Source: a bacterium (GTDB lineage: Bacteria; Sysuimicrobiota; Sysuimicrobiia; Sysuimicrobiales; Humicultoraceae). From it: DNA of 36,444 nt. A model generated the notes under the pieces. That model saw only the letters and a list, made by a program, of their open reading frames with translations, did not search any database and had not been told where the DNA came from. Shown in pieces: positions 9,933-29,266 of this stretch. Numbering within the stretch: position 1 is the stretch's first letter; each line of letters starts with the position of its first letter. A program made the translations under genes and the position numbers. Location of the stretch: the NCBI GenBank assembly GCA_041497675.1, contig JBGQGY010000023.1, positions 1 through 36,444 on the forward strand, given 5' to 3'.

Positions 9933-10376
9933 CTAGGGTGCGCGCGTGGCGGGAATCAGGAGCCGTTTGATGGCCGCGACGGCCTTGGGGATCAGTCGGC
10001 GAACCGATGCGGATAGGTCGGTGCCGGGCCGGAAATCGCTGCCGGGCACCCTGACCAGGTACGCTGCTGGCATTCGCCCGTAGAGGCGCCGGGAGAGGGC
10101 GAGGATGGTTTCGGCGGCGATCACATGGGTCAGGGGGCTCCCGTCGTGGGCGTCTGCGGCTTCGCTCACGCGGCTGACGGTCAGCCTGCCGCCGCGCCCA
10201 GCGTCGACGAACACCACGCGGTCGGCCGCGGCCACATCCCCGGCCAGTTCGGGCGTGAGTTGATGGCTCATCCGGACGGTGACGTCCGGCGTATCCTCCA
10301 GACGTTCGGCCACCGCCGGGCCGGCTCCGTCGTCTCCGGCCAGGGGGTTGCCAATGCCGATGACGAGTGTTCTCAT
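9933..10376 (-). CDS. hoxW: Hydrogenase maturation protease (HoxW-like)
   Basis: [39 protein letters not shown]-coupled to hoxH. Confidence 0.88.
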
Positions 10377-11803
10377 CGCGCGTCTCGCCTGAGCGTTTGC
10401 ACCAGACGCCCGGCGGTGTCGATGACGTCCACCACCAGCGGCATGGCGCCGACCGCGTGCGTCGAGCACGACAGACACGGGTCGTACGCGCGAATCGCGG
10501 CCTCGATCCGGTTGAGGATGCCTTCGGTGACGGGGTGGCCGTCGATGTAGTGGCGCGCCACCTGTTCAACGGCGCGGTTCATCGCCAGGTTGTTTTGGCC
10601 GGTGGCGATCAACAAGTTCACGCGGGTGATCAGGCCCTCGTCGTCCACCTGATAGTGATGGAAAAGCGTGCCCCGCGGCGCCTCAGCGACCCCGACCCCC
10701 TCATGGCGGTTGCGGGCGGCGTGCGCGCGCACGTCGTGATCGAGAATCGCCGGGTCGTCGAGCAACTGTCCGATCCGCTCCAGGCCGAAGACGATCTCGA
10801 TGAGCCGCGCGGAATGATAATAGAAGGAACTGAGCACCACGCGGCCGGCGCGCTGCCGGTATTCGGCCAGTTCGGCGTCGGCGATCGGCGTGCCACAGTG
10901 CGAGGCGACGTTCAGTCGTGCCAGCGGCCCCACCCGGTATGAGCCTACGGGATACCCCAACGGACGGTAGTAGGGGAACTTGAGATACGACCATGGTTCG
11001 GTGGCTTCACCCAGGAACTCCCAGTACCGCGTGGGATCCAGGGCATCAGCGACGACCCCGCCGCCTGCGTCGACGATCCGCAAGCGACCGTCATAATGCT
11101 CCAGCCCGCCGTCCGGCGTCACGAGCCCGGCAAAGAGCGATGGGAAGTTTCCAAAAACCTGCGCTTCTTCCCGGTGCCGATCCAACAGGCGTTTGAACAT
11201 CTCGAGGGTCGCACGCGCCGTCTGCAACGCCTCGGGCCACCCGACCAGCAAACGCTCGCGCTGTTCAGGACTCATCGGACCGCTGACCCCGCCGGGGACG
11301 ACCCACGCCGGATGGATGCGCTTCCCGCCGAGGGCCTCGATGATCTCCTGCCCGTACTGACGCAACCGTATGCCCGAGCGCGCCAACTCCGGGTAGCGCT
11401 CGATGACGCCGAGGATGTTACGCGATTCGGGCGGTGCGTCATAGCCCAACAAGAGGTCGGGCGATGACATGTGGAAGAAGCTGAGCGCATGCGACTGGAC
11501 GAGCTGCGCCAAGTGCATCAGACGGCGCAGGCGCTCGGCCGCGGGCGGGATGGCCACAGCCAGCAGCGCGTCGCAGGCCTTGGCCGACGCCATCAGGTGG
11601 CTGACCGGGCATATCCCGCAGACGCGCGAGGTGATGGCGGGCATCTCGTGGAAGAGGCGCCCTTCACAGAACTTCTCGAAGCCCCGAAACTCGGTGACGT
11701 GGAACCGGGCCTCGCGCACGGCGCCCGCGTCGTCGAGGTGCAGCGTGATTTTTGCGTGTCCCTCGATGCGGGTCACCGGATCGATGACGATGCGTCTGGT
11801 CAT
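10373..11803 (-). CDS. hoxH: Group 3d bidirectional [NiFe]-hydrogenase large subunit
   Basis: [11 protein letters not shown]1 motif [18 protein letters not shown]2 motif DPCLSCSTH followed by a cleavable C-terminal extension. Confidence 0.96.
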
Positions 11804-11821
11804 GCGGGGTCTCCTATCCGC

Positions 11822-12379
11822 CTATCCGTACTTCAGGCGGCCGGCGAGGTCGGGTGTCCGGCCGTCCAGGAGATCGGTCAAAACGCTATAGATCAGGTCG
11901 GGCGACGGCGGGCAGCCGGGCAGGTAGACGTCCACCGGTACGACGTGATGCACGGGCAGGACGCGGTCGAGTAGGGCCGGCACGATGCCTTCGGCCGCCG
12001 GCAGGCGCGGGTGCAAGGTCGCCGTCTCGATGTAGGCCCGCTGCAGCACGGATTCGGCGCTGCGCAGGGGGTTGCGCAACGCCGTGACGTTGCCCGTCAC
12101 GGCGCAGTCGCCGAACGAGACCAGAACGCGCGTCCGCTCGCGGATCACGCGGATCTGGCGCAGGTGGTCTTCGTTGGCGACGGCGCCCTCGACGAGCGTG
12201 ACATCGACGTTGTCCGGGAACTCCTTGATGTCGATGAGGGGACTGTAGACGAGGCGCGCGCGCGCGGCGAGATCGATCAGGCGCTCATCCAGGTCGAGGA
12301 AGGACATGTGACAGCCCGAGCAACCGCCCAGCCAGACGGTCGCCAGCCGCGCCAGAGTCTGAGGCGTCACTTGATCCAC
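11822..12379 (-). CDS. hoxY: Hydrogenase small subunit HoxY
   Basis: [32 protein letters not shown]. Start is GTG 12379 or GTG 12370 (GTGA overlap with the hoxU stop). Confidence 0.93.
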
Positions 12380-13083
12380 CGGTGCTTCTCCCTCGCCGTG
12401 GTGATGTACGTGAGGAACTCGCGGTGCTTGACCATCTCGGCCGCGGACACACCCTTCTCGAACAGCGCGCCGGTCGGGCAGACCTGCACACACTTGCCGC
12501 ACGAGGTGCAGGTGTCGGACGTGCCCCATGGTTGGCCCAGGTCGATGATGACCCGCGATGCGTGCCCGCGCCCGGCGACGTCCCACGTGTGGGCGCCCTC
12601 GACCTCGTCGCAGACGCGCACGCACCGCGTGCACATGATGCAGCGGTTGTGGTCGACGACAAAACGCTCGTGTGACGCATCGACGTGCCGCTCCGGCGCG
12701 CGGTACGGATACCGGACGTGCGTCATGCCGACCGCATAGCCAATGGTTTGCAAATCGCAGTGGCCGTTGGCCACGCAGACGGAGCAGATGTGATTGCCCT
12801 CCGCGAAGAGCAACTCCACGATCATGCGGCGGTACGCCTGCAGCCGCGGCGAGTCGGTCGTGACCTCCATGCCTTCGGCCACCTTCGTGACACAGGCCGC
12901 GACCGGTCGGCTCGCCCCCTGCACCTCGACCATGCACAGGCGGCAGGCGCCCACCTCGGACAGGCCGTCGAGATGGCACAGCGTGGGAATCGTGATGCCG
13001 TGCTCGCGCGCCGCTTCTAGGAGCGTCTCGTCCTCGTGGGCGCCGACCGGCGCGCCGTTAATGGCCAGCGTCTTGACGCTCAC
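12367..13083 (-). CDS. hoxU: Diaphorase Fe-S subunit HoxU
   Basis: IPTLCH...GACRLC...AAC [2Fe-2S]; [29 protein letters not shown] and [16 protein letters not shown]-coupled to hoxF. Confidence 0.95.
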
Positions 13084-14726
13084 GGCGCCACCCCTGCGGA
13101 TGGCGCCGGCTGCATCACACAGACGCCGGCCGGGCACGTCCGATCGACAATGTGGCTCACGTACTCGTCGCGGAAATGGCGCAGCGTCGAGAGCAGCGGG
13201 TTCGGTGCGTTTTGTCCCAGACCACACAGGCTGGCATGTCTGACCATGTCGCTCAACTCCTCCAGCAGGATCAGATCGGCCGTCGTCGCCTCTCCACGCG
13301 TGATCTTGACCAGCAGGTCGTGCATCTGCACGGTGCCGGCGCGGCAGGGGATGCATTTGCCGCACGACTCGTCCATGCAAAAGCGCATGAAGTACCGGGT
13401 CAGGTCGACCAGACAGGTGGTGTCATCCAGGACGATCATGCCACCCGACCCCATCATCGAGCCGAGACCGGTCAGGGACTCGTAGTCCACCGGCGTGTCG
13501 AGCAACGAGGCCGGGACGCAACCGCCACCGGGTCCGCCGGTCTGCACGGCCTTGATGGTCCGCCCGGGCAATGGGCCACCCGCGATGTCCTCGACGATAC
13601 GCCGCAGCGAGATCCCCATCGGCACCTCGATCACGCCGGTGCGCCGCACCGAACCGGCTAGGCTGAAGACCTTGGTGCCCCGGCTGCGTTCGGTGCCGAT
13701 ACCCGCGTACCAGGCGGCGCCCCGCGCGATGACGGCCGGCACGCTCGCGAACGTCTCGACATTGTTGATCAACGTGGGCGCCCCCCAGAGTCCGGACTCG
13801 GCCGGATAGGGTGGCCGCGGGCGCGGCTGCCCGCGCTTGCCTTCGATGGAGGCGATGAGCGCGGTTTCCTCGCCGCACACGTATGCGCCGGCGCCGATGC
13901 GCAACTCCACGCTGAAGCTGAAGCCTGAATCGCCGAGGCGCGCGCCGAGCAGCTGCAAGGCTTCCGCCTGGCGAATCGCAATCCGCAGGCGCTTGATGGC
14001 CATCGGGTACTCGCCACGAACATAGATATAGCCATGGGTGGCGCCGACCGCGTAGGCACCGATCGCCATCCCTTCGAGGACGCGGTGCGGATCGCCCTCG
14101 AGCACCGTGCGATCCATGAATGCGCCTGGGTCGCCCTCATCGGCGTTGCAGATGACGTACTTGCGCTCGCCCGGCGACTTGGCAACGGTCGTCCACTTCA
14201 ACCCGGTGGGGTATCCTGCGCCACCCCGGCCCCGAAGGCCGCTGGCGCGCACCTGCTCGATCACTTCCGCGGGCGTCATGTCCTTGACGGCGCGCGCCAG
14301 GGCGCCATAGGCGCCGGCGGCGATCGCCTCTTCGATGCGTTCGGGATCGATGCGGCCGCAGGAGGTCAGGACCACGGGCTGCTGGCCGGCGAAGAATGCG
14401 GCGTCGGACTCCAGGCTGAGATGGTGGACGGGCGTACCGCGGCGCACATGCCAGGAGACAACCTCGTCGACTTCATGCGATGAGGGACACGCGTACAGGG
14501 TGCCCTCGGGTTCGACCCGTACGAGCGGACCGGCGCTGCACAACCCCATGCAGCCGGCTCGCGTGACTTCGATGCCTGTCGCCGCCTCGTTGACGAAGGC
14601 CTGCCGGATGCCCTCGGAGCCCCGCGCCATGCAGCCGGCGCCGGTGCACACGCGCACGAGGTGCGTGCAGCCTCGCCGGCGCTGCCGCTCGGCCGCTGCG
14701 ATGCCGTCGAGCGCTTCGCGCATCAT
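13080..14726 (-). CDS. hoxF: Diaphorase flavoprotein HoxF (NuoF family)
   Basis: N-terminal CTGAGC...GCMGLC [2Fe-2S], [53 protein letters not shown]-coupled to hoxE. Confidence 0.95.
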
Positions 14727-15217
14727 GGTGTGCCCGCCCACTGCCGCACCCGCGCGACGACCTCGGCGGTACTCCGCGCGCCGGTGATCTCACCGTCGAA
14801 GACGACCACGGGTGCCTGGTTGCACGGCCCCAGACAGCGCACGGCGTGCACCGACACCACCCCGTCCGATCCGGTGGTGCCGGCCCGTACGCCGGTCGCG
14901 TGTTCCACGGCGGCGAGGACGTCGTCGGCACGCTTCACATAGCAGGCCGTGCCGGTGCAGACCGTCACCCTATGACGGCCGGGTGGGGTCAGCGAGAAGA
15001 AATGGTAGAAGGTCGCCACGCCGTACACGCGGCTCAGCGGAGTGGCCAGCCCGTGCGCGACATACGCGAGCACCTCGAGCGGCAGGTGGCCGAACCGGCG
15101 TTGGGCGACGTGCAGTACCTCGATCAGGCCGTCGGGTTGGCGTCCCTGGCGTCCCATCGCCTCGTCCAGTTCGCGATAGCGCGGGTCGAAGGCGGCGCGG
15201 TCCTGCGCGGACGTCAT
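14723..15217 (-). CDS. hoxE: HoxE (NuoE-like [2Fe-2S] subunit)
   Basis: LIEVLHVAQ, SRVYGVATFYHFF, CTGTAC...CLGPC. ATGA-coupled to hypB. Confidence 0.93.
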   Translation of the reverse strand: MTSAQDRAAFDPRYRELDEAMGRQGRQPDGLIEVLHVAQRRFGHLPLEVLAYVAHGLATPLSRVYGVATFYHFFSLTPPGRHRVTVCTGTACYVKRADDVLAAVEHATGVRAGTTGSDGVVSVHAVRCLGPCNQAPVVVFDGEITGARSTAEVVARVRQWAGTP

Positions 15218-15882
15218 GACCGGTGCCCCCGCGGCTGCCCGACGATCCACTCGATCCACGGGTTCAGCCCGTCGCCCGTCGAGGCCGAGAGCGCAAACAG
15301 CGGCGCCTGCGTGACCTGCCGCAGGCCTTCTGCGAACGTCTCCATGGAAAAGTTGGTGAACGGCAGCAGGTCGATCTTGTTGAGGATGACGGCATCCGCG
15401 CGGGCAAAGGTGGAGGGGTACTTCCACGGTTTGTCATCGCCCTCCGGCACGCTCGCGACCACGACCCGCAGGTGCTCGCCGAGATTGTAGGCCGCCGGGC
15501 ACACCAGGTTGCCGACGTTTTCGATGGCCAGGACGTCGAGATCGGTCAACGCGAGACGGGTCAGCGCGGTGCGGACGAGATGCGCGTCGAGATGGCAGGC
15601 GTTGCCGACCAGACGCGTCTCGATCTGCACGGCGGGCACCCCGCACCGGGAGAGACGCTCCGCGTCACGGGTGGTGGCGATGTCACCCTCGATGACCCCA
15701 AGGCGAAGGCGCGAGCGCAGGAGCGCGGCCGTGCGCTCGAGCACCGCAGTCTTCCCGCTGCCCGGCGATCCGATGAGGTTGAGCGCCAGCACGCCGGCGG
15801 CGTCCAGCGCCGCACGGACCTCCTCGGCCAGCGCGTCGTTTGCACGCAGCACGCGCTCGACCACCTCGACACGCATCGTCAT
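15214..15882 (-). CDS. hypB: Hydrogenase nickel-insertion GTPase HypB
   Basis: GSPGSGKT, IEGD, CHLDA, ENVGNLVCPA, EGDDKP-x-KYP, NKID. No His-rich N-terminal extension. Confidence 0.95.
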   Translation of the reverse strand: MTMRVEVVERVLRANDALAEEVRAALDAAGVLALNLIGSPGSGKTAVLERTAALLRSRLRLGVIEGDIATTRDAERLSRCGVPAVQIETRLVGNACHLDAHLVRTALTRLALTDLDVLAIENVGNLVCPAAYNLGEHLRVVVASVPEGDDKPWKYPSTFARADAVILNKIDLLPFTNFSMETFAEGLRQVTQAPLFALSASTGDGLNPWIEWIVGQPRGHRS

Positions 15883-16121
15883 TCCCCCTCCAACCACGTG
15901 AGGCGCAGGTCGGCGCCGTCGGCATCTTCGATGTCGAGCACGGCCCGCCCCAGCACGGGCCCTTCCCGCAGGATCTCAAACGCCATCGCCAGCGCGTGCG
16001 TGGCGACGCCACTCAATCGACCGACGCGAACCCCTACCCTGTTCACCGCCCGCAGCCCGTGATTGGCGGCCGCCACGGAGGCTTCGTTCAGCAGCGAATC
16101 GGCCAGCGACAGTTCGTGCAC
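15879..16121 (-). CDS. hypA: Short HypA-like nickel metallochaperone lacking the zinc finger
   Basis: MHELSLA Ni-binding N-terminus, VGRLSGV, A-x-L-x-I, C-terminal G-x-DLRL-x-x-LE. Only 80 aa, with no cysteines. SD AGGGAG upstream. Confidence 0.85.
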   Translation of the reverse strand: MHELSLADSLLNEASVAAANHGLRAVNRVGVRVGRLSGVATHALAMAFEILREGPVLGRAVLDIEDADGADLRLTWLEGE

Positions 16122-16133
16122 CGCCGTCTCCCT

Positions 16134-16898
16134 CTAGAACGTCTGATTGGCCAGCGCGAGCATGCAGCGTGTATAGCGCTCCAGGTGCATCGCCTGCGCG
16201 GGCGTCAGCACCCAACACGCCCATCGCCAGTGAAACGCCAGGATCTGGCCCGGCGCCGCGCCGTCCAGGAACCGATCGTCGCCGATCGCCCTGAGAATGC
16301 GTACGGGTTGCGGCGCGCCGAAGTCCAGCCGTCCATCGTGGCTGACGATCGGACGATAGGATACCGTGAACGCCTCCGGGTCCATGGTGGTGATGGCGCC
16401 CCAGCCGATCCGGCAGTGGTCCAACCCGTCGGACAGCGGCCTGCCGGTGCGGCGCCAGACGTCAAAGACATGGAACGCGTGGTGCGCGCGGGCGCCGGCG
16501 ATCGGCTTGCCCACCAGGAGGTCGAGTGTCGACGGCCGGACTCGCCCGCGAAAACGCTCGTGTAGGTGCTGCGCGTAGCGCGGCCAGTCCACCCGCTCTA
16601 ACAGATCGTTGCCAATCCAGTATGCTTCGACGACCCGCGCGTCGAGCGCGTCGGCGATTCCGTTGGCGGCCGCGATGAGCTTCAGATAGGGGTAGGCGCC
16701 TTCAAAGGTTCGCAGGTGGCGTCGCAGGCCCTGATCGGCGGTCTGTTCCTTGAGATAGGCGAGCAACTCGGCGTTGACGTCTCCGCCGCAGTATCCGAGG
16801 TGGTTGGGCATGAACGCGAACCGCGCGAACAACAGCATCCCGTTGAGAGACGCGGCGCCGCTCGCTTCGGAGGTCGACAGTGTTGGCGCTTCTCGCAT
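16134..16898 (-). CDS. Cys/His-motif protein resembling DUF6390 (hydrogenase-cluster associated, function unknown)
   Basis: FARFAFMPNHLGYCG, FEGAYPYL-x-LIA, VVEAYWIGN, HHAFHV, DHCRIGWG, HWRWAC. Family assigned from memory of these motifs, not from a search. Confidence 0.75.
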   Translation of the reverse strand: MREAPTLSTSEASGAASLNGMLLFARFAFMPNHLGYCGGDVNAELLAYLKEQTADQGLRRHLRTFEGAYPYLKLIAAANGIADALDARVVEAYWIGNDLLERVDWPRYAQHLHERFRGRVRPSTLDLLVGKPIAGARAHHAFHVFDVWRRTGRPLSDGLDHCRIGWGAITTMDPEAFTVSYRPIVSHDGRLDFGAPQPVRILRAIGDDRFLDGAAPGQILAFHWRWACWVLTPAQAMHLERYTRCMLALANQTF

Positions 16899-16907
16899 CA
16901 CACCCAC

Positions 16908-17756
16908 CTATCGCGGCGACGGATTCAGCCGGGACTCGATCTCGCGACCAGCAGCAATCAACCCCAGGGTGGTCGCGACAATGCCGATCGCGGGTGGGCC
17001 GGCCCACCACGCCCATGCATCGGTCACGAACAGCAAGGGATAGGTCAACGCCTGATGCAGGATCAGGCCCCAACTCACACGCGAGGGGTCGGCCAGTCCC
17101 AGCAGGCCCAGCGTGGCCTCCATCAGGATGGCCCACCGGGCGGTCAACAGGAACTTGGTGAAGAGGATCGGGGCGATCTCGGGCACGATGGCGGAGCGGA
17201 TGATGCGGGCCTCAGACGCCCCCTGCGCGCGCGCCGCCTCCACGTAATCCCTTCCCCACGTTGCGGTGACCTGCATGCGCACGATGCGCGCAAACGGCGC
17301 CCAACTCAGGAGGGCCAGGATGCCGATCAGCGACCAGAGGCCGGGCCCCAGGGTTGCGATCAGCAGCACGGCCAGCGGCATGCTGGGCACCGCGAGGAAG
17401 AGATCGATAACGGTGAGCGCTACGCCACGACCTCTGCCCCGGCTCCCGGCTGCGACCCCGGCGAGGGCCGACAGGATCACCGACAGCGCCGCCGCCGAAA
17501 ACCCCACGATAAGCGATGTCTGCGCCCCGTAGATCATCTGGCTGAACAGGTCATGTCCCTGTGCGTTGGTGCCCAGCCAGAAGCGCGGCGTGGGTCCGCT
17601 CACCGGATCGCCGACGATCCGCTGCGGGTCCATCGGCAGGAGCAGCGGTGTCAGGGTGGCCGCGGCGGCGACGAACAGCAGGAGGGCCGCGCCGATCAAC
17701 GCTGCGGCCGGCAGCGCGCGAGGCCTGGGTGCCGAGAGCGCGGCGGTGGTGATCAT
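16908..17756 (-). CDS. ABC permease, NikC/OppC/DppC type
   Basis: WLGTNAQGHDLFSQMIYGAQTSL, EAA loop DYVEAARAQGAS, EATLGLLGL-x-DP-x-x-x-SWG. Confidence 0.92.
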   Translation of the reverse strand: MITTAALSAPRPRALPAAALIGAALLLFVAAAATLTPLLLPMDPQRIVGDPVSGPTPRFWLGTNAQGHDLFSQMIYGAQTSLIVGFSAAALSVILSALAGVAAGSRGRGRGVALTVIDLFLAVPSMPLAVLLIATLGPGLWSLIGILALLSWAPFARIVRMQVTATWGRDYVEAARAQGASEARIIRSAIVPEIAPILFTKFLLTARWAILMEATLGLLGLADPSRVSWGLILHQALTYPLLFVTDAWAWWAGPPAIGIVATTLGLIAAGREIESRLNPSPR

Positions 17757-18706
17757 GACGGGGCGCTCCGGGGATCCAGCCGGGCGCCGATCGCGTCGAG
17801 GGCAAAGTTCGTCGTCAGCACCGCGAGGCTGGAGACGAGGACGATCCCCTGCAAGAGCGGATAATCACGGGTCGACACGGCTTCGAAGAGCAACCATCCC
17901 ATGCCGGGATAGGCAAACAGACGCTCAACGACGGCCGCGCCGGCGACAGCGGCACCGAGCCGTAGCCCCAACAGCGTGACCACCGGTGGAAGCGCGTTGC
18001 GCCACACGTGCCAGGCCAGGCGCCGCGCGGGCAATCCGCGGGCCCGGGCTGCGGTCAGGAACGGCGCGCCGAGCACGGGAGCAATGGCGTTGCGGACGAG
18101 CAACGCGAACGCCGGGGCGATGATGAGCACAAGCGTGAGCCCGGGCAACACCGCGTGCCACGCAAGATCAATCAGGCGCTGGAGCACGCCCGCGTCGTCG
18201 ATGAAGAGTGTCTGCCCGCCCCCCGGCGGAAATACGCGCAGCTTCGACGCGAGCCCCACGATGAGGAGCATCCCGAGCAAGAACTCGGGCAACGCTCCGA
18301 TCCCGAACACGGCGGACGTCAGCACCCGTGTCCCGTTTTCCCTTGGGTGGGTCGCGGCACGCCAACCCACCGCTGCCCCGAAGACCGCCGCCACCAGGAC
18401 GGCGCCGCCCACGAGGCCCAGCGTCCACGGGAGTCGCTCGGCGAGCACCAGGCGGACCGCGCGGTGCGACGTCATCGACCAGCCGAGGTCGCCGTGTCCC
18501 AAGTCCGCGAGGTAGCGGGTGAACTGTCGCCACAGCGGATCATCCAGGTGATAGGTCTCTGTCAGGATCTGCCGCGCCGCCGCGGGCAGCGCGGCCGCCT
18601 GATCGCCGCCTGCCACCGGGCTGCCCGGGAGCCAGCGGGGCAGCACGAAGTTGAGCCCCACGAGCAGCGCGGCCACCCCCGCATAGCGCAGCAACCGATG
18701 CGTCAT
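17753..18706 (-). CDS. ABC permease, NikB/OppB/DppB type
   Basis: LNFVLPRWLPG, LDDPLWRQF, GDLGWS, FLTAARARGL, VERLFAYPGMG, RDYPLLQG. ATGA coupling on both sides. Confidence 0.92.
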   Translation of the reverse strand: MTHRLLRYAGVAALLVGLNFVLPRWLPGSPVAGGDQAAALPAAARQILTETYHLDDPLWRQFTRYLADLGHGDLGWSMTSHRAVRLVLAERLPWTLGLVGGAVLVAAVFGAAVGWRAATHPRENGTRVLTSAVFGIGALPEFLLGMLLIVGLASKLRVFPPGGGQTLFIDDAGVLQRLIDLAWHAVLPGLTLVLIIAPAFALLVRNAIAPVLGAPFLTAARARGLPARRLAWHVWRNALPPVVTLLGLRLGAAVAGAAVVERLFAYPGMGWLLFEAVSTRDYPLLQGIVLVSSLAVLTTNFALDAIGARLDPRSAPS

Positions 18707-20235
18707 GGCAGGAAGATCACCTTGTTTTCGATCAGCGGGATGCCGTTCATCAGCCCGCCCCGCGTGGCGACCGGCCGGAGTTTGCGGCCGTCGTAGACCC
18801 ACGTGAAGCGTCGGTAGTAGAGGGCCAGGGTCGGGAGCTCCTCGGCCAGGATCGCCTGCATCTGATTCACGACACCACGACGGCGGACCGGGTCGAGTAT
18901 TTCCGCCTGCTCGCGGGCAAGACGCGCGTAGGTCGGATCCGCGAAATCGGAGCCTTGTCCAAACTGGTTTGCATCCTCGCCGGTCATCCACCGCCGGAGG
19001 TAGTCGGGATCGCCGCCTGCGCCAATGTGGGAGGTCAGGGCCAGCTGGAACTTGCCCTCCCCAATCAGCGCCGCCCGCGTTCGCGCGTCGACGACCCTCG
19101 CCACCGCATCGATCCCTACCGCCCGCAGCATCTCCTGTATCAATGGGACGGCGGGAGACGGGCTGGCCAGCAGTTCGATCTGGGATGACGACAGGCCGGA
19201 CGCACTTTGGAGCGTTCGCGCCCGCACCGGGTCATAGGGGTAGGCGCGCGTCCCCGGCGCGTACCAGGGATCCGTAGGCGGGACGAGCCCCGGGCTACCG
19301 GGGATACCGGCGCCGCGAGTCAGCGTCAGCGCGAGTTGCGTGCGGTTGAGCGCGTAGGCGATGGCCTGGCGTGCCATCTTAGGCTCGAAGGGCGGACGCC
19401 GGAGGTTGAACAGCAGACGCGCCACCGAGAGTGGCTCAGTGCGCCAGACGCGAAGATACGAGTGACCGGCAAACGCCCGCGCGACCTCTTCGGCGTCCGT
19501 CATGGCCACGTCGACCTCGCCGCCCTGCACCGCGAGCATCTGCCGCTCGGGGGCGACCAGCAGGTACTGGATCTCGCCAACGGCGGGGCGCCCGCGGAAG
19601 TACCGGGGATTGGCACCGAGCCGGTATGCGCCGGCGGTGGGACGGTAGTCGACGAGTCGATAGGGACCGGTGCCCACCGCCATCGCAAGGGTCTGCGCGC
19701 GCTGCGGCTCCTGGACGTCCTTCCAAACGTGTTCAGGGATGATGGGGACGATGCCGGCGACGTCGTGGAGGAATGGGGCAAACGGCCGCCGCAGACGCAG
19801 CCGCACCGTGAGTGCGTCGTCGGCAACGACGCCAACCACCATGCTGGTATCGACCCATGCAAACGGGTGAGCGCGGTAATACTCGAACGTAAACTGGACG
19901 TCGCGCGCGGAAAAGGGACGGCCGTCGTGCCACACGACGCCCGGGCGAAGATTGAACGTGTAGGTCGTGCCGTCAGGCGAGACGCGCCAGGACTGCGCCA
20001 ACCACGGGATCGTCCCGGTGTCGTCCTTCCAGACCAGGGAGTCGTAGATCAGACTCAGGCGGACGAGCCCGCCGGGGCCCAGGGTCGAGACGGCGAACGG
20101 CGTGAGGAATCCCACGTCCGTCCACCAGGCGATGCGGACGACATCTAACGCCGTCACGGCGCCGGCAACAGATGAGGCGACCACAAGGAGCACGACGGCG
20201 AGGAGCGCGAGGCGGCAGAGGAGTACCGTCCTCAC
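18703..20235 (-). CDS. ABC substrate-binding protein, family 5 (NikA/OppA type), probably for nickel by context
   Basis: Signal peptide, LIYDSL, PWLAQSW-x-VS-x-DG-x-TYTFNLR-x-GV-x-WHDG-x-P, VGTGPYRL. GTGA-coupled to hypC. Confidence 0.9.
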   Translation of the reverse strand: MRTVLLCRLALLAVVLLVVASSVAGAVTALDVVRIAWWTDVGFLTPFAVSTLGPGGLVRLSLIYDSLVWKDDTGTIPWLAQSWRVSPDGTTYTFNLRPGVVWHDGRPFSARDVQFTFEYYRAHPFAWVDTSMVVGVVADDALTVRLRLRRPFAPFLHDVAGIVPIIPEHVWKDVQEPQRAQTLAMAVGTGPYRLVDYRPTAGAYRLGANPRYFRGRPAVGEIQYLLVAPERQMLAVQGGEVDVAMTDAEEVARAFAGHSYLRVWRTEPLSVARLLFNLRRPPFEPKMARQAIAYALNRTQLALTLTRGAGIPGSPGLVPPTDPWYAPGTRAYPYDPVRARTLQSASGLSSSQIELLASPSPAVPLIQEMLRAVGIDAVARVVDARTRAALIGEGKFQLALTSHIGAGGDPDYLRRWMTGEDANQFGQGSDFADPTYARLAREQAEILDPVRRRGVVNQMQAILAEELPTLALYYRRFTWVYDGRKLRPVATRGGLMNGIPLIENKVIFLP

Positions 20236-20462
20236 GAGTCCGCATCCTCCGCGTCGATCTCGTGCCAAACCTCGAGGATCTCAGCGGCCTCGTCTGCGGT
20301 GACAACATTAGTGGCCGACCCGTAGGTGACGAGCACGTAGGTTCCCGGTACGACCGGGCCGATCAGGGATATGTCAATCTGACGCGAGCCGCCCGGCCCC
20401 TCGCCGACGGCGCGGGCGGTATCGAGTAGCGTGACGATGCGATACGGCAGCGCAAGGCACAT
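20232..20462 (-). CDS. hypC: HypC/HybG/HupF-family chaperone (His-less variant)
   Basis: MCLALP N-terminus, PG-x-YVLV-x-x-G-x-A, EA-x-E-x-L helix. The canonical VLVH is replaced by VLVT. Confidence 0.85.
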   Translation of the reverse strand: MCLALPYRIVTLLDTARAVGEGPGGSRQIDISLIGPVVPGTYVLVTYGSATNVVTADEAAEILEVWHEIDAEDADS

Positions 20463-21328: not shown

Positions 21329-21832
21329 TCAGTCGTGCCCCATCTGGTCGCCGACCGCGAGGGCGTGTACGACTTCAGCCTCGGACAGGTGACGGCGAAG
21401 CAGAGACACGTAGACTTCTTCTTCCTTCAGACAGTGGACTTCAACCAGCGCACGGATCTGATAGGCGAGGATCCGAGCGCGATCGATCAACGATGGATCG
21501 GCGGCGCCCGCCTCAATCTGGCCCGCCAGCCGGATGAACTCCGAGATGCGGGCGAGAATCTCGCGGTGGTCGATCAGCATCGTGGCGTTGACGTCGCCGT
21601 GGCGCCGGACCAGGTCACCAACACCCGGGTAGAAGGTGATCTCTTCCCATTCCGCATGGGGGACCAGCACCTGACGGAAGAACTGTTCGGTCTCGCGTAG
21701 CATCTCCGCGGCGGCGGGGCCGGCGCCCTGTTGCAGACGGTCCATCGTGCCGGTGAGCACCGCGAGTCCTGCGCCGAGCTGCGCGTGTTCGGCTTTGAAC
21801 CCCTCAATCAGCGACGTCTTGGCCTCGCTCAT
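21329..21832 (-). CDS. Hemerythrin-like (HHE) di-iron domain protein
   Basis: EH...HAEWEE-x-x-FYP...DH...HCLKEEEVY His/Glu pattern. SD GGAGGTG upstream. Confidence 0.85.
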   Translation of the reverse strand: MSEAKTSLIEGFKAEHAQLGAGLAVLTGTMDRLQQGAGPAAAEMLRETEQFFRQVLVPHAEWEEITFYPGVGDLVRRHGDVNATMLIDHREILARISEFIRLAGQIEAGAADPSLIDRARILAYQIRALVEVHCLKEEEVYVSLLRRHLSEAEVVHALAVGDQMGHD

Positions 21833-21922
21833 GGCCCCTCACCTCCCAAGTGCTTATCTGCATCCTAGGAGACGGCAGGGGGACCGGCCATCGGGTTTTG
21901 GACCGATTTTGGCAGGATGGCG

Positions 21923-22378
21923 TCAGTTCGCGCCGCGCAGCAGCATCACGGCGGTCACCACCAAGGCCACCCACAGGGCGGCACTGGTGGCGCACCAGGC
22001 GCACACCGCGTGGAGCACGCCCACCTGGAGCCACACCAGGTAGGCGGAGAAGGCGGCGCCGAAGACGACCAGGCCAAAGAGGGCTGGCGACAGCGTCGCG
22101 CGGTGCCTTGGCCTGAGGGCGCCCGTCAGTGCCACCGCCCAAACGGCCAAGTAGAGCAGCAGGCCCCACCCGGCGACCGGGAGACCCAGCATCCGGGCGT
22201 ACGGGCTCGTCGCGACCCGTTCGCAGGCGCCTGTCAGGCAGATCGGCGCGTAGCCTCGGAGCGCGGCCAGCAGTAGATAGCCAGACACAGCCAGACCGGC
22301 TGTCGCGAGCCCCGACGCCGCCCACCAGATGCGGGCGCCTGTCTCGCTAGCGCTTGAGCGCGGTTTCGATGGCCCCAC
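21923..22378 (-). CDS. Vitamin K epoxide reductase (VKOR) family, DsbB-like partner
   Basis: C-x4-C loop (CLTGAC), V-x-x-SPYA-x-x-LGLPV, TM helices, active-site CAWC. Start is uncertain (GTG 22378 with GAGGTG upstream). Confidence 0.88.
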   Translation of the reverse strand: MGPSKPRSSASETGARIWWAASGLATAGLAVSGYLLLAALRGYAPICLTGACERVATSPYARMLGLPVAGWGLLLYLAVWAVALTGALRPRHRATLSPALFGLVVFGAAFSAYLVWLQVGVLHAVCAWCATSAALWVALVVTAVMLLRGAN

Positions 22379-23030
22379 GAAACACCTCGATCGGCTGGGC
22401 GCCGGCGACCGGCTCGCCATTGATGAAACTTGTGGGGGTGCCGCTCACGCCGCGGCGCTTCCCTTCTGCGAAATCGGTGTCGACGCGGCCTCGGGTCGCC
22501 CCGCGGCGCACGCACTGTGCAAAGGCTGCCTGATCGAGACCGATCTTGGCAGCGGCCCCCTCGAGGTCACCCCTGGTGCGCAGCGCGCTCCGGGAGGCCA
22601 GCGCGAACAACTCGTCGTGATAGGCCCAGAACTGCTGCTGGTCCGCGGCGCACTCGCTGGCCGCCGCCGCGGTGACGGAGAACCTCTCGTCGACGATCGG
22701 GAAGTGGCGATAGACCAACCTGACGGTCCCGGGTTTGACGTAGTCGGCGATGATCGCAGGTTCGACCTGCGCGGCAAAGTCGGCGCAGTGGCTGCAGAGA
22801 AAGTCTGAGAAGACCTCGATCGTCACCCGCGCGGCGGCGTTGCCCATCGTCGTGCCGCCGGTCGTTGCCGCTGGCTGGCGGCCGGGGGGTGGTGCGGGCG
22901 GCGTCGCTGTGGACCAGTGGATCACGGCCACCGCAAGCGCCGCCGCCGCGGCCGCGACACCCACGATGAACACCGCCCGATTCGTCCGGCGGCGCGCGGC
23001 GATTTCTCGTTGACGCTGGCGTGCAGACAT
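22347..23030 (-). CDS. Membrane-anchored DsbA-family thiol-disulfide oxidoreductase
   Basis: N-terminal TM, G-x-x-x-A-x-VTI-x-x-FSDFLCSHC, YRHFP, GVSGTPTSFING cis-Pro loop. SD AGGAGG upstream. Confidence 0.9.
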   Translation of the reverse strand: MSARQRQREIAARRRTNRAVFIVGVAAAAAALAVAVIHWSTATPPAPPPGRQPAATTGGTTMGNAAARVTIEVFSDFLCSHCADFAAQVEPAIIADYVKPGTVRLVYRHFPIVDERFSVTAAAASECAADQQQFWAYHDELFALASRSALRTRGDLEGAAAKIGLDQAAFAQCVRRGATRGRVDTDFAEGKRRGVSGTPTSFINGEPVAGAQPIEVFRGAIETALKR

Positions 23031-23041
23031 CAGGCTACCTC

Positions 23042-23869
23042 CTAGATCTGGTCGCGCCCGTCGAAGAGCGCCACGGCGATCAGCACCGGCGCGACGGTCC
23101 ACAGGGCCAGCGCGCCGGCCAGCAACGCGGTCGCGCCACCCGATCCAAATCGCGCGATCAGGAAGCCGCCGACCGGTCCCAGCATCTCCAGGGACGAATC
23201 GAGCAGCAGCAGCGCGAGCAGGCGCGCGATGTCAACCGGATTGAGCAGCAAGAGCGCCGCGAGCAGCCGTGTCCCCGCGCCGGCCACCGCGCCGGCGCCG
23301 ATCAGCATCAGGTCGAAGAAGACCACACTGGCGAACCAGACCACGAGGGCCATGGCCGTCGCCCGGGTCCTGCTGCGCGCGGCAACAGCGATGACGATGC
23401 CGATGGCCAGGTAGACGGCGGCCAGGGCCAAGGAGATGCCCAGGAAGGCCAGGTATTGCAGCCCGCCGGTCGCGCCGGTCGCCAACCCGACCAACACACC
23501 GGCCAACCCGAAGCCGGTCAGGGTTGCCAGCCCGATCGCCGCGAGCGAGCCCACGAATCGACCGATGAGCAGTTCGCTGCGTTCGACCGGCTGCGCCAGG
23601 AACAGTTCCAATGCGCCGGATTCGCGGTCGCCGCTGATGCCCGCGCTGCCCAGTAGCAGGGCGACCAACGGCACCAACAGCAAGCACAGGTTGATGAGGC
23701 TGGCGGTGGTGCGGCCGTAGCCTTCGAGGCCGACAGCGCCGATCGTAGACAGCCCGATCAGCGACAGCCCGAGCGCCAGCACGGCGAACAGGGCTCCGTA
23801 CGCGAGGAGCCACCGGTTGCGTATGGCTTCGCTCAGCTCATACCGAGTCATCACGAGAATGGCGTTCAT
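23042..23869 (-). CDS. nosY: ABC permease NosY
   Basis: E-x-x-EAIRNRW, LVPLVALLLG...DRESGALELFLAQPV-x-R, LLLNPVD-x-x-R. Downstream of nosF. Confidence 0.9.
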   Translation of the reverse strand: MNAILVMTRYELSEAIRNRWLLAYGALFAVLALGLSLIGLSTIGAVGLEGYGRTTASLINLCLLLVPLVALLLGSAGISGDRESGALELFLAQPVERSELLIGRFVGSLAAIGLATLTGFGLAGVLVGLATGATGGLQYLAFLGISLALAAVYLAIGIVIAVAARSRTRATAMALVVWFASVVFFDLMLIGAGAVAGAGTRLLAALLLLNPVDIARLLALLLLDSSLEMLGPVGGFLIARFGSGGATALLAGALALWTVAPVLIAVALFDGRDQI

Positions 23870-24756
23870 CGATTGGTGGCCTCGCCGAGACGGCGGGCGT
23901 CGATCGACGGCTCTTCGAGATGCACACCGAGCGGATGCAACCCGGCGGCAGCCACGGCGGCGAGGAGATCGAACGCCGTGCCGACCGGTGTCGTAGCCAC
24001 GACGGTGCTTTGCGTCTGCGTGAACTGCACTCCCGGCCGCGCTTCCAGCAGATCGGCCAGTTCCTTGTGCCCGGTGCCGTTGAGCGTGAAGATGACCCGC
24101 TGCTGGACGGCCATGCCCATGCCGTCTGGCCGGCCGCTGTAGACGAGCCGGCCGCGGTCGAGCACCATCGCGCGTGAGGCCACGGCCAGCGGGTCGGCGA
24201 CCAGGTGCGTGGCCAGGACGATCGTTCGACCGGCTTTCGCCAGCGCCTCCAGGTCGCGATGCAAGGCGCGCCGCGCCTGCGGATCCAGATGCGCCGCCGG
24301 TTCGTCGAACAGGATGACCGCAGGATCTGCCTGGAGCGCCGTCGCGAGCGCCAACCGCTGCCGCATGCCGCCCGACAGCGTCCGCACCGCGGCGTCGGTC
24401 TGGGCCTCGAGCCCGACGCGCGTGAGCCACTCGGCGTCGCCGCGGCGCAGACCGCGCAGGCGCGCGAAGAGATCCAGCACTTCCAGGCAGGTCAGGTCGG
24501 GTGGGAAGGAAGGACGCTGGGGCACATAGCCGATCAACCGGCGCGCCGCCTTCCCGTCGTTCAGCACATCGTGGCCACCGACGGTCGCCGCGCCTTCAAA
24601 CGCCAGCAGCCCGGCCAAGCACCGCAACAGGGTCGTCTTCCCGGCGCCGTTCGATCCGAGCAACACCGCGAACGCGCCCGGCTCGATCGTCGCCGTGACG
24701 CGGTCGAGCGCGGTCGTGGCGCCGAAGCGTTTGGTCAGGTCGCGAATCGCGATCAC
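23866..24756 (-). CDS. nosF: ABC ATPase NosF
   Basis: Walker A GSNGAGKT, LSGGMRQR, FDEP, H-loop ATH. GTGA-coupled to nosD. Confidence 0.92.
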   Translation of the reverse strand: MIAIRDLTKRFGATTALDRVTATIEPGAFAVLLGSNGAGKTTLLRCLAGLLAFEGAATVGGHDVLNDGKAARRLIGYVPQRPSFPPDLTCLEVLDLFARLRGLRRGDAEWLTRVGLEAQTDAAVRTLSGGMRQRLALATALQADPAVILFDEPAAHLDPQARRALHRDLEALAKAGRTIVLATHLVADPLAVASRAMVLDRGRLVYSGRPDGMGMAVQQRVIFTLNGTGHKELADLLEARPGVQFTQTQSTVVATTPVGTAFDLLAAVAAAGLHPLGVHLEEPSIDARRLGEATNR

Positions 24757-26753
24757 CGCGATCGCCGTCCCGGTCTGAGCGCGGCGAGGCTCAGGGCCGC
24801 CGGAACGAGCAGGAGTGCGCCGATCCAGAACACGCCGGCGTGTGGGGCGGTCTCCGAACCCGTCGAAGGGACCGGCGGCACTCCGCTGGCGGGTGGCTTC
24901 ATCAGTGGGGCGCGGTCCTCCACCACGGGCGCGGCACCGAGCAACGGGAGCATCCGTGCGGCCGTGTCGATGGCATGGTGGGCCGGGGTGAAGAGAAACG
25001 CCTGCAGCGCCGGAACGCGATCCGCCAGGTCTTCCAGCAGGTCGGTTCGGCGGTAGGGGACGTCACCAACGCCGTCACCGGCAACGTCAAAACCGGTGTA
25101 GTCGCCCCAGTAGTTGCCGCGACCGTCCACCCACCAGTGGTTGGCATCGGCCCGTACGGCGCCCCGCGATTGGACCTGCCGCAGGTTCTCGACGATGGTG
25201 TTCTCAGTAACGGTGATCGCCGCGGTGCTCATCAGCGAGAAACCGGTCTCGTTGAAGGCGATCAGGTTCCGCTCGACCTTGACCCAGCCGTCGGGCGTCG
25301 ACGGCGCGTTGTCGAACTCCAGCGCGATTCGGTTGCGGACCACGCGGTTCTCGCGGATCAGGACGCGGTCGACATCTTTGAAGATCAGGCCGACGCCGAT
25401 CTCGGCCGACCGGCTGCCCTCGAACGTGTTGCCCGCCAGCGTGACGTCGGCCGAGTTCATGACGGCTCCGCCCACCGCGTTGTCCTTGAACACGTTGGCG
25501 CGAAACGCGTTGTTGTTCGAGTACATGTAGTGGATTCCATAACGGCATCCCGAGACGGTGTTGTGTTCGACGGTTATCAGGTCCGAGAACGAGATGTAGA
25601 ACCCGTCCTTCCCCCGCGTGATGCGGTTGTGACGCACTTGCACGCTCCGCGCTTTCCACAGATAGACCGCATGCCCGCGCCGCTCCACCGGCAGGTCGGC
25701 GGTGGCGATCGTATTGTCCTCGACGATCGTCCCCGTCGTCCCGGCCAGGTACACGCCAAACAGCACGTCGGTCACCTGGTTGTTTCTAATCACCGCTCGA
25801 TCGCCTCGAACGACAATCCCAGCAGCCTCGCTACTGTATGCCAGCGCGCTGCCTCGAATCACGAACCCCTCCAGCCGCACATCCGGTCCGGTGATGACCA
25901 CAACGTCGCCTCGCCGTTCGCCGTCGATCACCGGATAACCCTCGCCGCGGAGCGTGATCGGTCGTGAGAGGACCAGCGGGCCGCGATACCATCCCGCCGG
26001 CACGGTGATGACCGCACCGGGAGGCGCCGCCGCGACGGCCGCCGCCAGGTCGAACGCGCTGGGCGGCGCGGCATGGGCAGCGAGCGGGAGGGCCGTGAGC
26101 GCCATGATGAACGCCAGTCCGGTGACGGCCGCGGCCGTCATGACCTGCCGCCGCGCGCGACCGCCGGCGGGCAGCCGCGGCCCCAGGGTCAGCAGCAGCG
26201 CGCTCAGCGCGAAGAGGAGCAGCCCCGGCCCGGGCCAGGCCGTGACGTTGAAGTTCATCACCACCGTTGGGCCGATCACCTTGGGGGTAAACGCGGGCAT
26301 CCGGAACGCCGCGTTCGGGTTCAGCGTGTGGCCGAACACGTAGAGTCTATACTGCAGATCCACGAGAAATCCAAACGGCAGCGCCCAGGCTCCCAAGACG
26401 ACCAATAGGCGGAATGCCCTCCACGCTACGAAGGGGAGGGCCAGGATCGCCAGCGCGAGCATCGCGACACCCGGGGTGAAGAGCCGCAGTTCCGGGAACA
26501 CTTCCTCCAACCCTTCGCTTCGCTCGCGATCCTCACCGGGCTCGGCCCCGGGTATGGGCCGCATCCCGATATAGTGATTGAGGGTGTTTAACTCGTCGAC
26601 ATCGCCGCGGGTGCCGCGTCCATCGATGAGGAGTCGTACCCCCTGAGGATACTGCGGCGCGTGCAGCGTCATCGTCCACAGCGGCAGCGCCGCGCCGGCG
26701 AGCAGCATCGCGAGCGCTCCGCCCGTCACCGCGATCCGTTGAAGGCGATTCAT
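24753..26753 (-). CDS. nosD: Fusion of a NosB-like membrane domain (N-terminal) and NosD copper-maturation beta-helix (C-terminal)
   Basis: N-terminal PLW-x-x-x-L-x-APQYP-x-G, LNTLNHYIGM, FGH-x-L-x-P-x-A. C-terminal RYGIHYMYS, GNYWGDY-x-GFD-x-x-GDGVGDVPY, D-x-x-PLM. One uninterrupted 666-aa frame. Confidence 0.88.
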   Translation of the reverse strand: MNRLQRIAVTGGALAMLLAGAALPLWTMTLHAPQYPQGVRLLIDGRGTRGDVDELNTLNHYIGMRPIPGAEPGEDRERSEGLEEVFPELRLFTPGVAMLALAILALPFVAWRAFRLLVVLGAWALPFGFLVDLQYRLYVFGHTLNPNAAFRMPAFTPKVIGPTVVMNFNVTAWPGPGLLLFALSALLLTLGPRLPAGGRARRQVMTAAAVTGLAFIMALTALPLAAHAAPPSAFDLAAAVAAAPPGAVITVPAGWYRGPLVLSRPITLRGEGYPVIDGERRGDVVVITGPDVRLEGFVIRGSALAYSSEAAGIVVRGDRAVIRNNQVTDVLFGVYLAGTTGTIVEDNTIATADLPVERRGHAVYLWKARSVQVRHNRITRGKDGFYISFSDLITVEHNTVSGCRYGIHYMYSNNNAFRANVFKDNAVGGAVMNSADVTLAGNTFEGSRSAEIGVGLIFKDVDRVLIRENRVVRNRIALEFDNAPSTPDGWVKVERNLIAFNETGFSLMSTAAITVTENTIVENLRQVQSRGAVRADANHWWVDGRGNYWGDYTGFDVAGDGVGDVPYRRTDLLEDLADRVPALQAFLFTPAHHAIDTAARMLPLLGAAPVVEDRAPLMKPPASGVPPVPSTGSETAPHAGVFWIGALLLVPAALSLAALRPGRRSR

Positions 26754-27223: not shown

Positions 27224-27239
27224 CCCATCGTCTCCGCGC

Positions 27240-27264
27240 CGGGGGAGGGCGACGCCCTCCCCCG
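27240..27264 (-). terminator. Perfect 11-bp GC hairpin between nosZ and nosL (transcript stabiliser or partial terminator)
   Basis: CGGGGGAGGGC-GAC-GCCCTCCCCCG, with no U-tract on either strand. Confidence 0.6.
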
Positions 27265-27278
27265 CAGGACTCGCGTGC

Positions 27279-29252: not shown

Positions 29253-29266
29253 GTCCATCCCTCCTG

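Follow-up and report, generated by a model that had tools for sequence, protein, structure and literature searches.

A HypC, transporter and DUF6390 cassette preceding a Hox-type [NiFe]-hydrogenase operon of Sysuimicrobiota, and the hydrogenase company of DUF6390 in other phyla

Gene content and conservation of the cassette

The DNA analysed here is a stretch of 36,444 nucleotides (positions 1 to 36,444 of contig JBGQGY010000023.1, assembly GCA_041497675.1; below, the window) from a bacterium of the Sysuimicrobiota, family Humicultoraceae. Its minus strand carries, from position 20462 down to 15214, a cassette of seven genes identified with Pfam and NCBIfam, in the order hypC (with threonine in place of the conserved histidine), a gene for a family 5 solute-binding protein (SBP), two ATP-binding cassette (ABC) permease genes (PermB and PermC), a gene of the family DUF6390, hypA (without zinc finger) and hypB (Table 1). 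The end of hypB leads straight into hoxE, hoxF, hoxU, hoxY, hoxH and the gene of a maturation protease (hoxW), and this client hydrogenase operon spans positions 9933 to 15217 of the same strand. The cassette is a functional, hydrogenase-specific segment of a maturation operon, which is conserved and not decaying. DUF6390 is itself a widespread gene of hydrogenase clusters, with a HypC paralogue as constant neighbour and a transporter as frequent neighbour or fusion partner.

A preliminary description of this DNA, made from the letters alone, had seen a tightly packed and mostly translationally coupled cassette entering hoxEFUYH, and every junction agrees with it. GTGA or ATGA overlaps join hypC to the SBP gene, the SBP gene to PermB, PermB to PermC, hypA to hypB, and hypB to hoxE; PermC and DUF6390 are spaced by 0 nt, and DUF6390 and hypA by 12 nt. 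None of the seven genes contains an internal stop, and the G+C content at third codon positions (0.80-0.86 in the cassette frames) is a coding signature.

The closest genomes are 12 metagenome-assembled genomes (L001-L012), labelled Armatimonadota or 'Candidatus Fervidifonticultor', the latter being assigned to the phylum CSP1-3/Sysuimicrobiota according to PMC11604079. The order DUF6390-hypA(short)-hypB is kept in 12 of these 12 loci, and hypC stands upstream in every one that offers enough upstream sequence. ABC genes lie between hypC and DUF6390 in most of the relatives, L009 and L012 being without them. HoxEFUYH follows downstream only in L004; the remaining relatives pair the cassette with a different soluble hydrogenase, which indicates that the module travels independently of its client. 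All seven genes are under purifying selection: the median pairwise ratio of nonsynonymous to synonymous substitution rates (dN/dS) among the window and its relatives is 0.32 for HypC, 0.19 for the SBP, 0.24 and 0.28 for the permeases, 0.21 for DUF6390, 0.35 for HypA and 0.17 for HypB, similar to the 0.20 of the flanking CBS gene.

Table 1. Genes of the cassette and of the hydrogenase operon that follows it (window coordinates).
Feature	Position	Strand	Evidence and remarks
HypC-family chaperone, 76 aa	20232..20462	-	PF01455 59.3 bits (4e-16; cut-off 28.5); TIGR00074 62.7 vs 48
Periplasmic solute-binding protein, family 5 (NikA/Opp/CntA-like)	~18703..20235	-	PF00496 (SBP_bac_5) 5e-68; start GTG 20235 (overlaps hypC stop) or TTG 20268
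ABC permease PermB (NikB/OppB-like), 317 aa	17753..18706	-	PF00528 (BPD_transp_1) 1e-28; ATGA overlap with SBP stop
ABC permease PermC (NikC/OppC-like), 282 aa	16908..17756	-	PF00528 4.6e-20; ATGA overlap with PermB
DUF6390 protein, 257 aa	16134..16907	-	PF19927 206.8 bits vs cut-off 25
HypA, nickel domain only, 80 aa	15879..16121	-	PF01155 52.1 bits, profile positions 1-68 of 112; TIGR00100 50 bits, below cut-off 88.1
HypB GTPase, 222 aa	15214..15882	-	TIGR00073 245.2 bits vs 121.2; ATG overlaps hypA stop
hoxE	15217..14723	-	Pfam; ATGA overlap with hypB
hoxF	14741..13080	-	Pfam
hoxU	~13092..12367	-	Pfam; start approximate
hoxY	~12400..11822	-	Pfam; start approximate
hoxH	11803..10373	-	Pfam
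Maturation protease	~10370..9933	-	TIGR00072 79.5 bits vs cut-off 47.45; start approximate

Upstream of the cassette lie genes for a CBS protein, a hemerythrin and a DsbA-like thioredoxin, which together with a nosZ-nosL-nosD-nosF-nosY nitrous-oxide reductase cluster occupy positions 21329-29396, just upstream of hypC. Downstream of the Hox operon, CBS and USP genes and a 2-oxoacid:ferredoxin oxidoreductase were found. The CBS, hemerythrin and USP neighbours reappear beside the cassette in related loci. The window opens with the end of another hydrogenase cluster, group-4-like in character (positions 1-1200), in which a NuoH/HycD-like membrane subunit, a 2x[4Fe-4S] protein and, at 541-1200, a protease of the HycI type are encoded; the source genome therefore matures at least two [NiFe] enzymes. 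An Rfam scan of the whole window returned no matches, a promoter scan gave one site for 1.6 expected, and a terminator scan gave nine sites (4.7 +/- 2.4 expected), none of them at a gene end and not used as evidence.

The DUF6390 protein and its partners

At E <= 0.001 the DUF6390 family counts 2332 proteins out of 5628 candidates, and none of them bears a name other than 'DUF6390 family protein' or 'hypothetical'. The window protein, noted in the preliminary description as an uncharacterised DUF6390-like Cys/His protein, is a true member, scoring far above the Pfam cut-off (Table 1). It is a cytoplasmic two-domain protein: a helical N-terminal domain (about residues 20-165) is followed by a HypC-like beta-barrel with a C-terminal helix (167-256), and the AlphaFold2 model, with a predicted local distance difference test score (pLDDT) of 86.6 and a predicted template modelling score of 0.86, shows the same succession, the barrel covering residues 167-234. 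Residues C40, H143, H146, C165, H226 and C231 are invariant across 28 DUF6390 sequences, and the set is kept at 31-40% identity in Mycobacterium, in Sulfobacillus and in the second copy of a Chloroflexi contig (L077), with the exception of C231, which is serine in Sulfobacillus.

NCBIfam holds no model for the DUF6390 protein, and Pfam searches with each half at E up to 10 returned PF19927 alone. Whole-protein Foldseek against the Protein Data Bank (PDB) gave 0 matches at E <= 0.001, the N-terminal domain (about 145 residues) had no PDB match in Foldseek, and the best look-alikes in the ESM Atlas, with PF19927 skipped, scored 0.83 and 0.76, both being unnamed clusters below the lead level of 0.9. 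In a comparison with the [NiFe] large subunit, NiFeSe_Hases did not match at any E up to 10, and a HupK seed found true large subunits only. The protein shows no HypD-like sequence, and its conserved cysteines are too few for a [4Fe-4S] site.

The C-terminal barrel resembles OB folds, and Foldseek pairs it with HypC 2z1c_B (probability 0.99, TM score on the target 0.60, E 0.056) as well as with the HypC chains 3vyr_A and 3vyt_A, the E-values of the HypC matches lying between 0.06 and 0.16. Aligned by hhalign to 24 HypC sequences, DUF6390 gave a probability of 57.7% (E 1e-4), with C165 opposite Cys2 and H226 opposite the canonical histidine of HypC; the C-terminal domain alone against 62 HypCs reached 87.4% (E 3.7e-6), the 30 aligned columns including the GD...H motif, and the N-terminal domain, used as control, 0.1%. 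From these two lines, moderate in strength and concordant, we conclude that an internal HypC-like module is present in DUF6390. The module shares with the HypC family the barrel and helix as well as a cysteine and a histidine at equivalent alignment positions, and differs from it in the internal position of the cysteine and in the fusion of the barrel to a helical domain that has no PDB match.

For a wider view of the partners, each species was represented by a single genome; of the 406 pattern-matched stretches obtained, 364 code for a DUF6390 relative, and the best 80 were kept. Their neighbours were identified with Pfam on 283 called open reading frames (ORFs) from 22 loci and a few re-checks, and with local hidden Markov models (HMMs) over all ORFs for the 80 loci.

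The window HypC passes the curated cut-offs of PF01455 and TIGR00074 and begins with Met-Cys, Cys2 thus being kept as in the HypC/HybG/HupF family. It differs from that family by the threonine that faces the conserved histidine of Thermococcus kodakarensis HypC (VLVT versus VIVH in the alignment to PDB 2z1c/3vyr), a loss recognised correctly in the preliminary description. All 70 DUF6390-linked HypC-family ORFs (from 69 loci) keep Cys2; the canonical histidine is present in 16 and absent in 54, its place being taken by Tyr (25), Ala (10), Asp (10), Asn (6), Val (2) or Phe (1). In E. coli this histidine (H51) sits near Cys2 where HypC meets HypD; efficient formation of the complex depends on it, and it affects the choice of client, although H51A HypC is still functional when co-overproduced with HypD (PMC9002611); it may also ligate the iron (PMC12134894). 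Because it lacks the histidine, a HypC of the window type is expected to be a poor partner of HypD, which fits a paralogue acting downstream of HypD.

Extra genes beside hypC were seen in a Mycobacterium locus (L083:10106-10816, 236 aa, annotated as HypC-family) and a Sulfobacillus locus (L084:11215-11466, 83 aa, 'hypothetical'); both products have an unusual Cys-rich N-terminus (Val-Cys-Val-Thr-Cys) and keep the histidine. The operon-tail HupF/HypC of Sulfobacillus acidophilus (L084:20006-20248) has glutamate at this position, and His-less HypC paralogues thus occur also at some distance from DUF6390.

Complex prediction, proposed in the preliminary description as a check, gave for HypC with DUF6390 an interface score (ipSAE) of 0.36 against 0.00 for the best of three controls, with run agreement of at least 64% of contacts and a partner pLDDT of at least 76; 116 out of 157 solved complexes pass the ipSAE mark, against 2 out of 215 mismatched pairs, but only 18 of the solved complexes, and both of the mismatches, do so with a value of 0.60 or less. 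The predicted complex thus lends weak support to a partnership of the two proteins.

The window HypA keeps the MHE start, the last strand and the nickel-domain fold of the HypA metallochaperone. It differs from it in that, as had been described, precisely the CxxC...CxxC zinc module is gone from the alignments, and it falls below the TIGR00100 cut-off (Table 1). Its AlphaFold2 model (pLDDT 96.5) matched 11 PDB entries at E <= 0.001, every one of them HypA (for 3a43_B, TMq 0.90 and root-mean-square deviation 1.8 A in Foldseek), and is that of an intact nickel domain, as judged from the prediction. Against 1.84 billion cluster representatives the short HypA found 334 matches at E <= 0.001; among the best 150 of these, 78 have no CxxC (62 of them 70-100 aa long and 71 starting with MHE), 62 have at least two and 10 have one. 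HypA without the zinc module is therefore a large natural class. Among the 46 loci with a nearby HypA, it was found in 18 (all 12 close relatives and six Chloroflexota), while 27 keep the module and one is intermediate. Of the two unusual partners whose co-occurrence with DUF6390 the preliminary description had put forward for checking, the His-less HypC is usual beside DUF6390, and the Cys-less HypA is not tied to it.

The transporter genes resemble NikABCDE in that a family 5 binding protein and two permeases with nickel systems as best NCBIfam matches are encoded with hydrogenase genes. The best match of the SBP is the nickel-binding nikA model TIGR02294 (141.7 bits, cut-off 393), that of PermB the Opp2B nickel permease (206 bits, cut-off 350); nikB (145.5 vs 447) and nikC (121 vs 358) likewise stay below their equivalog cut-offs, and the SBP also matches opine (CntA) and glutathione (GsiB) binding-protein models. 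The set differs from NikABCDE by these sub-threshold scores and by having no NikD/NikE ATPase genes. The sole ABC ATPase of the window belongs to the nos cluster (23866-24756), in accordance with the ATPase-less system described before, and no ABC ATPase was found within 2.5 kb of any of 29 DUF6390-linked permease sets, a count that is a little soft because a single seed underlies the HMM for the ATPase.

DUF6390 in hydrogenase gene clusters of several phyla

DUF6390 was found in Chloroflexota, CSP1-3/Armatimonadota, Actinomycetota and Bacillota. A [NiFe] large subunit is encoded within 9 kb in 31 of the 32 loci having at least 8 kb on both sides, the exception being L027. Judged by subunit composition, these hydrogenases are of several kinds, among them soluble NAD(P)-linked enzymes, Mvh/Hdr-linked enzymes (Dehalococcoidia), cytochrome-b-linked uptake enzymes, and a further kind with NifU/DUF5947/DUF6084 neighbours. 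The usual gene order is small subunit, large subunit, protease, [hypA], [hypB], hypC, [EamA], DUF6390, [SBP-permease-permease], in which brackets mark genes that may be missing. In 55 of the 62 loci with at least 4 kb of upstream sequence, DUF6390 is preceded on its own strand by a HypC-family ORF, and such an ORF stands directly upstream (<=250 nt) in 38 of 72. A transporter adjoins DUF6390 in 54 of the 65 loci with both flanks, being a carrier of the EamA/drug-metabolite transporter (DMT) type in 23, a downstream SBP5-permease set in 21 and upstream permeases, the arrangement of the window, in 10, and the stop of EamA or PermC overlaps or abuts the start of DUF6390.

The association extends to gene fusions. 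Six DUF6390 homologues of 451-2000 aa were retrieved at E <= 0.001, four of which match both PF00892 (EamA) and PF19927. Three (P0280-P0282) are clean EamA-DUF6390 fusions, in which a short linker joins a full EamA to a full DUF6390 that has the six invariant residues complete; P0283-P0285, the remaining longer homologues, were not counted, being fragmentary or short of some of these residues.

Several further observations were made in these loci. In eight of them (L021:3482-4687, L074:10776-12002, L079:6696-8156, L026:10827-12104, L041, L058, L070 and L076) a conserved His-rich protein of about 400-490 aa is encoded between DUF6390, which it follows directly, and the SBP gene. It contains 13-20 histidines in the four that were counted, belongs to no Pfam or NCBIfam family except for a weak DUF4159 match in one, is not encoded in the window, and may be a further nickel-related accessory protein. 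The Chloroflexi contig L077 carries two DUF6390 genes (12092-13508 and 3550-4523), the second of which follows a short hypA and a His-bearing hypC and has a much stronger Pfam match (322 bits). At L055:9510-9980, hypC and DUF6390 are separated by a 156-aa ORF whose match to the [NiFe] large-subunit profile is limited to positions 1-81, and which may represent a gene remnant or a mini HupK-like fragment. At L015:4723-5145, MvhD/FlpD was called as two ORFs (profile positions 1-59 and 81-123), which could reflect a sequencing error or else a stop codon in frame that possibly codes for selenocysteine.

As a rule, hypC adjoins hypD. The preliminary description had remarked that no hypD follows hypC here, and indeed neither the window nor the 10 kb around DUF6390 in the 80 loci holds one. 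HypD, HypE and HypF were found in the window neither by Pfam on the main ORFs nor by six-frame phmmer with seeds of the three proteins, and the same seeds gave 0 matches in the six frames of the window and the 80 loci (1.22 Mb), a result that shows non-linkage rather than absence from the genomes. The seeds were taken from two annotated plasmid records (two HypD seeds), whose HypC and HypA seeds found 57 and 42 ORFs. The DUF6390-linked hypC is therefore never beside hypD in these loci, a further difference from the HypC/HybG/HupF family.

Two plasmids of cultured organisms present another arrangement. That of Mycobacterium intracellulare has hypF-hypC-...-hypE-hypC-hypD-DUF6390, the DUF6390 start overlapping the hypD stop (the hyp gene order of M. 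smegmatis is given in PMC2799521), and that of Sulfobacillus acidophilus has hypF-hypC-hypD-hypE-tatA-DUF6390 ahead of the structural genes. The HypCs beside hypD on both plasmids keep the histidine. Since DUF6390 coexists with hypCDEF in these two organisms, it would supplement the canonical pathway rather than replace it.

Possible roles in late maturation

The reading that we favour, with a probability of about 45%, is that the cassette is a hydrogenase-specific late-maturation module, in which a metal, probably nickel, is handed over from a transporter by DUF6390 together with HypC. The Nik-like binding protein and the two permeases would import nickel, probably as a small chelate, with an ATPase supplied in trans. 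DUF6390 would dock at the cytoplasmic face of the importer, take the metal on its invariant, putative Cys/His cluster and, through its HypC-like domain and the partner HypC, deliver it to the HypC-bound apo-large subunit (HoxH). The zinc-less HypA and HypB would then finish nickel insertion at HoxH, after which the protease would cleave. The Fe(CN)2CO group would still be made by HypD, HypE and HypF with a canonical HypC, encoded elsewhere in the genome. In favour of this reading are the conservation of the cassette and the selection on it, the hydrogenase, HypC and transporter neighbours of DUF6390 together with its EamA fusions, the nickel systems as best (sub-threshold) matches of the SBP and permeases, the HypC-like domain with its cysteine and histidine, the intact nickel domain of HypA, the coexistence with hypF, hypC, hypD and hypE and, weakly, the predicted complex with HypC.

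The preliminary description had proposed a dedicated nickel-delivery or chaperone module built around DUF6390 and relying on HypDEF from elsewhere. This proposal is supported in part: the cassette is functional and centred on DUF6390, and the coexistence with hypF, hypC, hypD and hypE on the plasmids makes HypDEF elsewhere most plausible; DUF6390 itself is not confined to this cassette. If the mechanism is widened to the family, DUF6390 would define a new class of [NiFe]-hydrogenase maturation factor, a HypC-domain metallochaperone physically coupled to a membrane importer (as EamA fusion or docked on ATPase-less ABC permeases), which would pass metal directly from the membrane to large subunits bound by HypC. 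At least five phyla would have it, mycobacterial clusters included. This generalisation is less likely than the favoured reading, and we put it forward only tentatively.

Several points weigh against the transporter-coupled hand-over. The ABC set comes without an ATPase of its own, so that transport by it is putative, and 11 of the 65 loci have no transporter next to DUF6390. The EamA subfamily matches generic carboxylate, amino-acid and amine DMT models only, far below their cut-offs, and DMT carriers are not known to transport bare metal ions. In Mycobacterium and Sulfobacillus, DUF6390 adjoins hypD or hypE (and tatA) with no importer, which better fits a role on the iron or HypD side. The HypC-equivalent cysteine of DUF6390 is internal (residue 165 of 257) and not N-terminal after Met removal as in HypC; the Cys/His pair retained is the one implicated, in HypC, in Fe(CN)2CO and HypD contact (PMC12134894, PMC9002611); and the prediction of the HypC-DUF6390 complex is weak. 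The genes present, their conservation and the selection on them, the domain architecture, the synteny and the fusions are shown here; what is carried, where DUF6390 docks and in which sequence the steps follow are inferred. Metal binding by DUF6390 and nickel as its metal are putative, and HypDEF encoded elsewhere in the source genome is presumed, most plausibly so.

The main rival explanation makes use of the same facts on the iron side. DUF6390 and the mostly His-less HypC would constitute an intermediate carrier or scaffold of Fe(CN)2CO comparable to HoxV/HupK with HoxL/HupF, the C165/H226 domain docking on HypD, taking over the iron group and passing it to the operon-specific HypC that escorts the large subunit, with the transporters being merely co-regulated nickel importers. 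This would agree with HypC adjacency as the most constant feature of the loci (55/62), with the overlap of the DUF6390 start and the hypD stop in M. intracellulare and the position behind hypFCDE in Sulfobacillus, and with a HypC-like domain that keeps both Cys and His where 54 of 70 neighbouring HypCs are without the histidine. That residue is needed for efficient HypD binding (PMC9002611), and extra scaffolds have a precedent (PMC12134894). However, an iron relay leaves unexplained the three clean EamA-DUF6390 fusions, the start/stop coupling to the last membrane gene of the transporter and the transporters that have been inserted behind hypC and ahead of DUF6390; hypD is missing from the surrounding 10 kb at all 80 loci, and DUF6390 is without similarity to large subunits or to HypD. 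We regard it as a possible but rather unlikely account. An enzymatic role would suit the transporters in another way, DUF6390 acting on an organic molecule moved by EamA or SBP5, for example by releasing nickel from a chelator, making one, or supplying a precursor of the diatomic ligands, with Cys/His as catalytic residues. The fused or adjacent DMT carriers are nearest to amino-acid and carboxylate transporter models, the SBP matches opine and glutathione binding-protein models too, and the fold of the N-terminal domain has no PDB match; but neither Foldseek nor the ESM Atlas nor Pfam pointed to an enzyme family, to a cofactor motif or to a matching structure, its C-terminal half is a barrel of the chaperone type, and a transporter is missing in 11 of 65 loci as well as in the Mycobacterium and Sulfobacillus clusters, which makes this role improbable.

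A maturation route independent of HypDEF, raised more speculatively in the preliminary description, would have DUF6390 replace HypD. It draws on the absence of hypD, hypE and hypF from the window and all 80 loci and on the position of DUF6390 after hypC, where hypD is usual, but it is not supported: two cultured organisms have DUF6390 in one cluster with hypF, hypC, hypD and hypE, and DUF6390 is neither HypD-like nor equipped with enough cysteines for a [4Fe-4S] site, and the cassette has no carbamoyltransferase or HypE-like function. We consider it very unlikely. The cassette could also be read as paralogues of a canonical hyp set that are redundant or in decay, a view for which relaxed selection and a lack of conservation among relatives had been named as signs; it was rejected, and its probability is close to nil. 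The losses of the HypC histidine and the HypA zinc finger could, taken alone, resemble degeneration, but the reading frames are intact and coupled, dN/dS is 0.17-0.35, the cassette is kept in 12 of 12 relatives, and the short HypA folds onto HypA structures and has no CxxC in more than half of its best cluster representatives (78/150).

Among described systems, HoxV/HupK with HoxL/HupF comes near, being likewise an extra accessory protein of hydrogenase clusters that goes with a HypC paralogue (PMC12134894). HoxV/HupK are similar to the large subunits of hydrogenases, whereas DUF6390 is not and is linked or fused to transporters; the review concerns Pseudomonadota, in contrast to the phyla listed above for DUF6390. 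A second likeness is found in E. coli. There hybF and hybG stand at the end of the structural operon, and in most DUF6390 loci the structural genes are likewise followed by protease, HypA-like and HypC-like genes. HybG and HybF are paralogues (PMC12134894). The DUF6390 loci differ by the added DUF6390 and transporter, by a HypA that is often zinc-less (18/46) and by a HypC that is usually His-less. The accessory proteins of [NiFe]-cofactor assembly given in the sections of the 2025 review consulted are HypA-F, HoxL/HupF, HoxV/HupK and HypX (PMC12134894), and the parts consulted of an account of Parageobacillus Huc list no DUF6390 gene (PMC12976888). A literature search by name returned no mention of DUF6390, with bioRxiv supplements and subscription journals outside its reach, so that an earlier description is possible. 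Of the seven gene families five are already known, as is the pathway; what is new, as far as that search and the list of the review reach, is that DUF6390 is tied to the maturation of [NiFe]-hydrogenases, has a HypC-like domain and is coupled to transporters.

There is no settled view of how the Hyp machinery obtains nickel or iron from uptake systems, and DUF6390 would offer a testable handle on this question; if the generalisation to the family is true, an importer-coupled HypC-domain metallochaperone would supply the link that is missing where metal uptake meets cofactor insertion. The clusters that contain DUF6390 serve hydrogenases of groups that are important for atmospheric H2 oxidation and chemolithoautotrophy. 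The zinc finger of HypA and the histidine of HypC, usually held as hallmarks of these proteins, are naturally dispensable in large lineages, which matters for annotation pipelines and for the heterologous production of O2-tolerant Hox-type hydrogenases.

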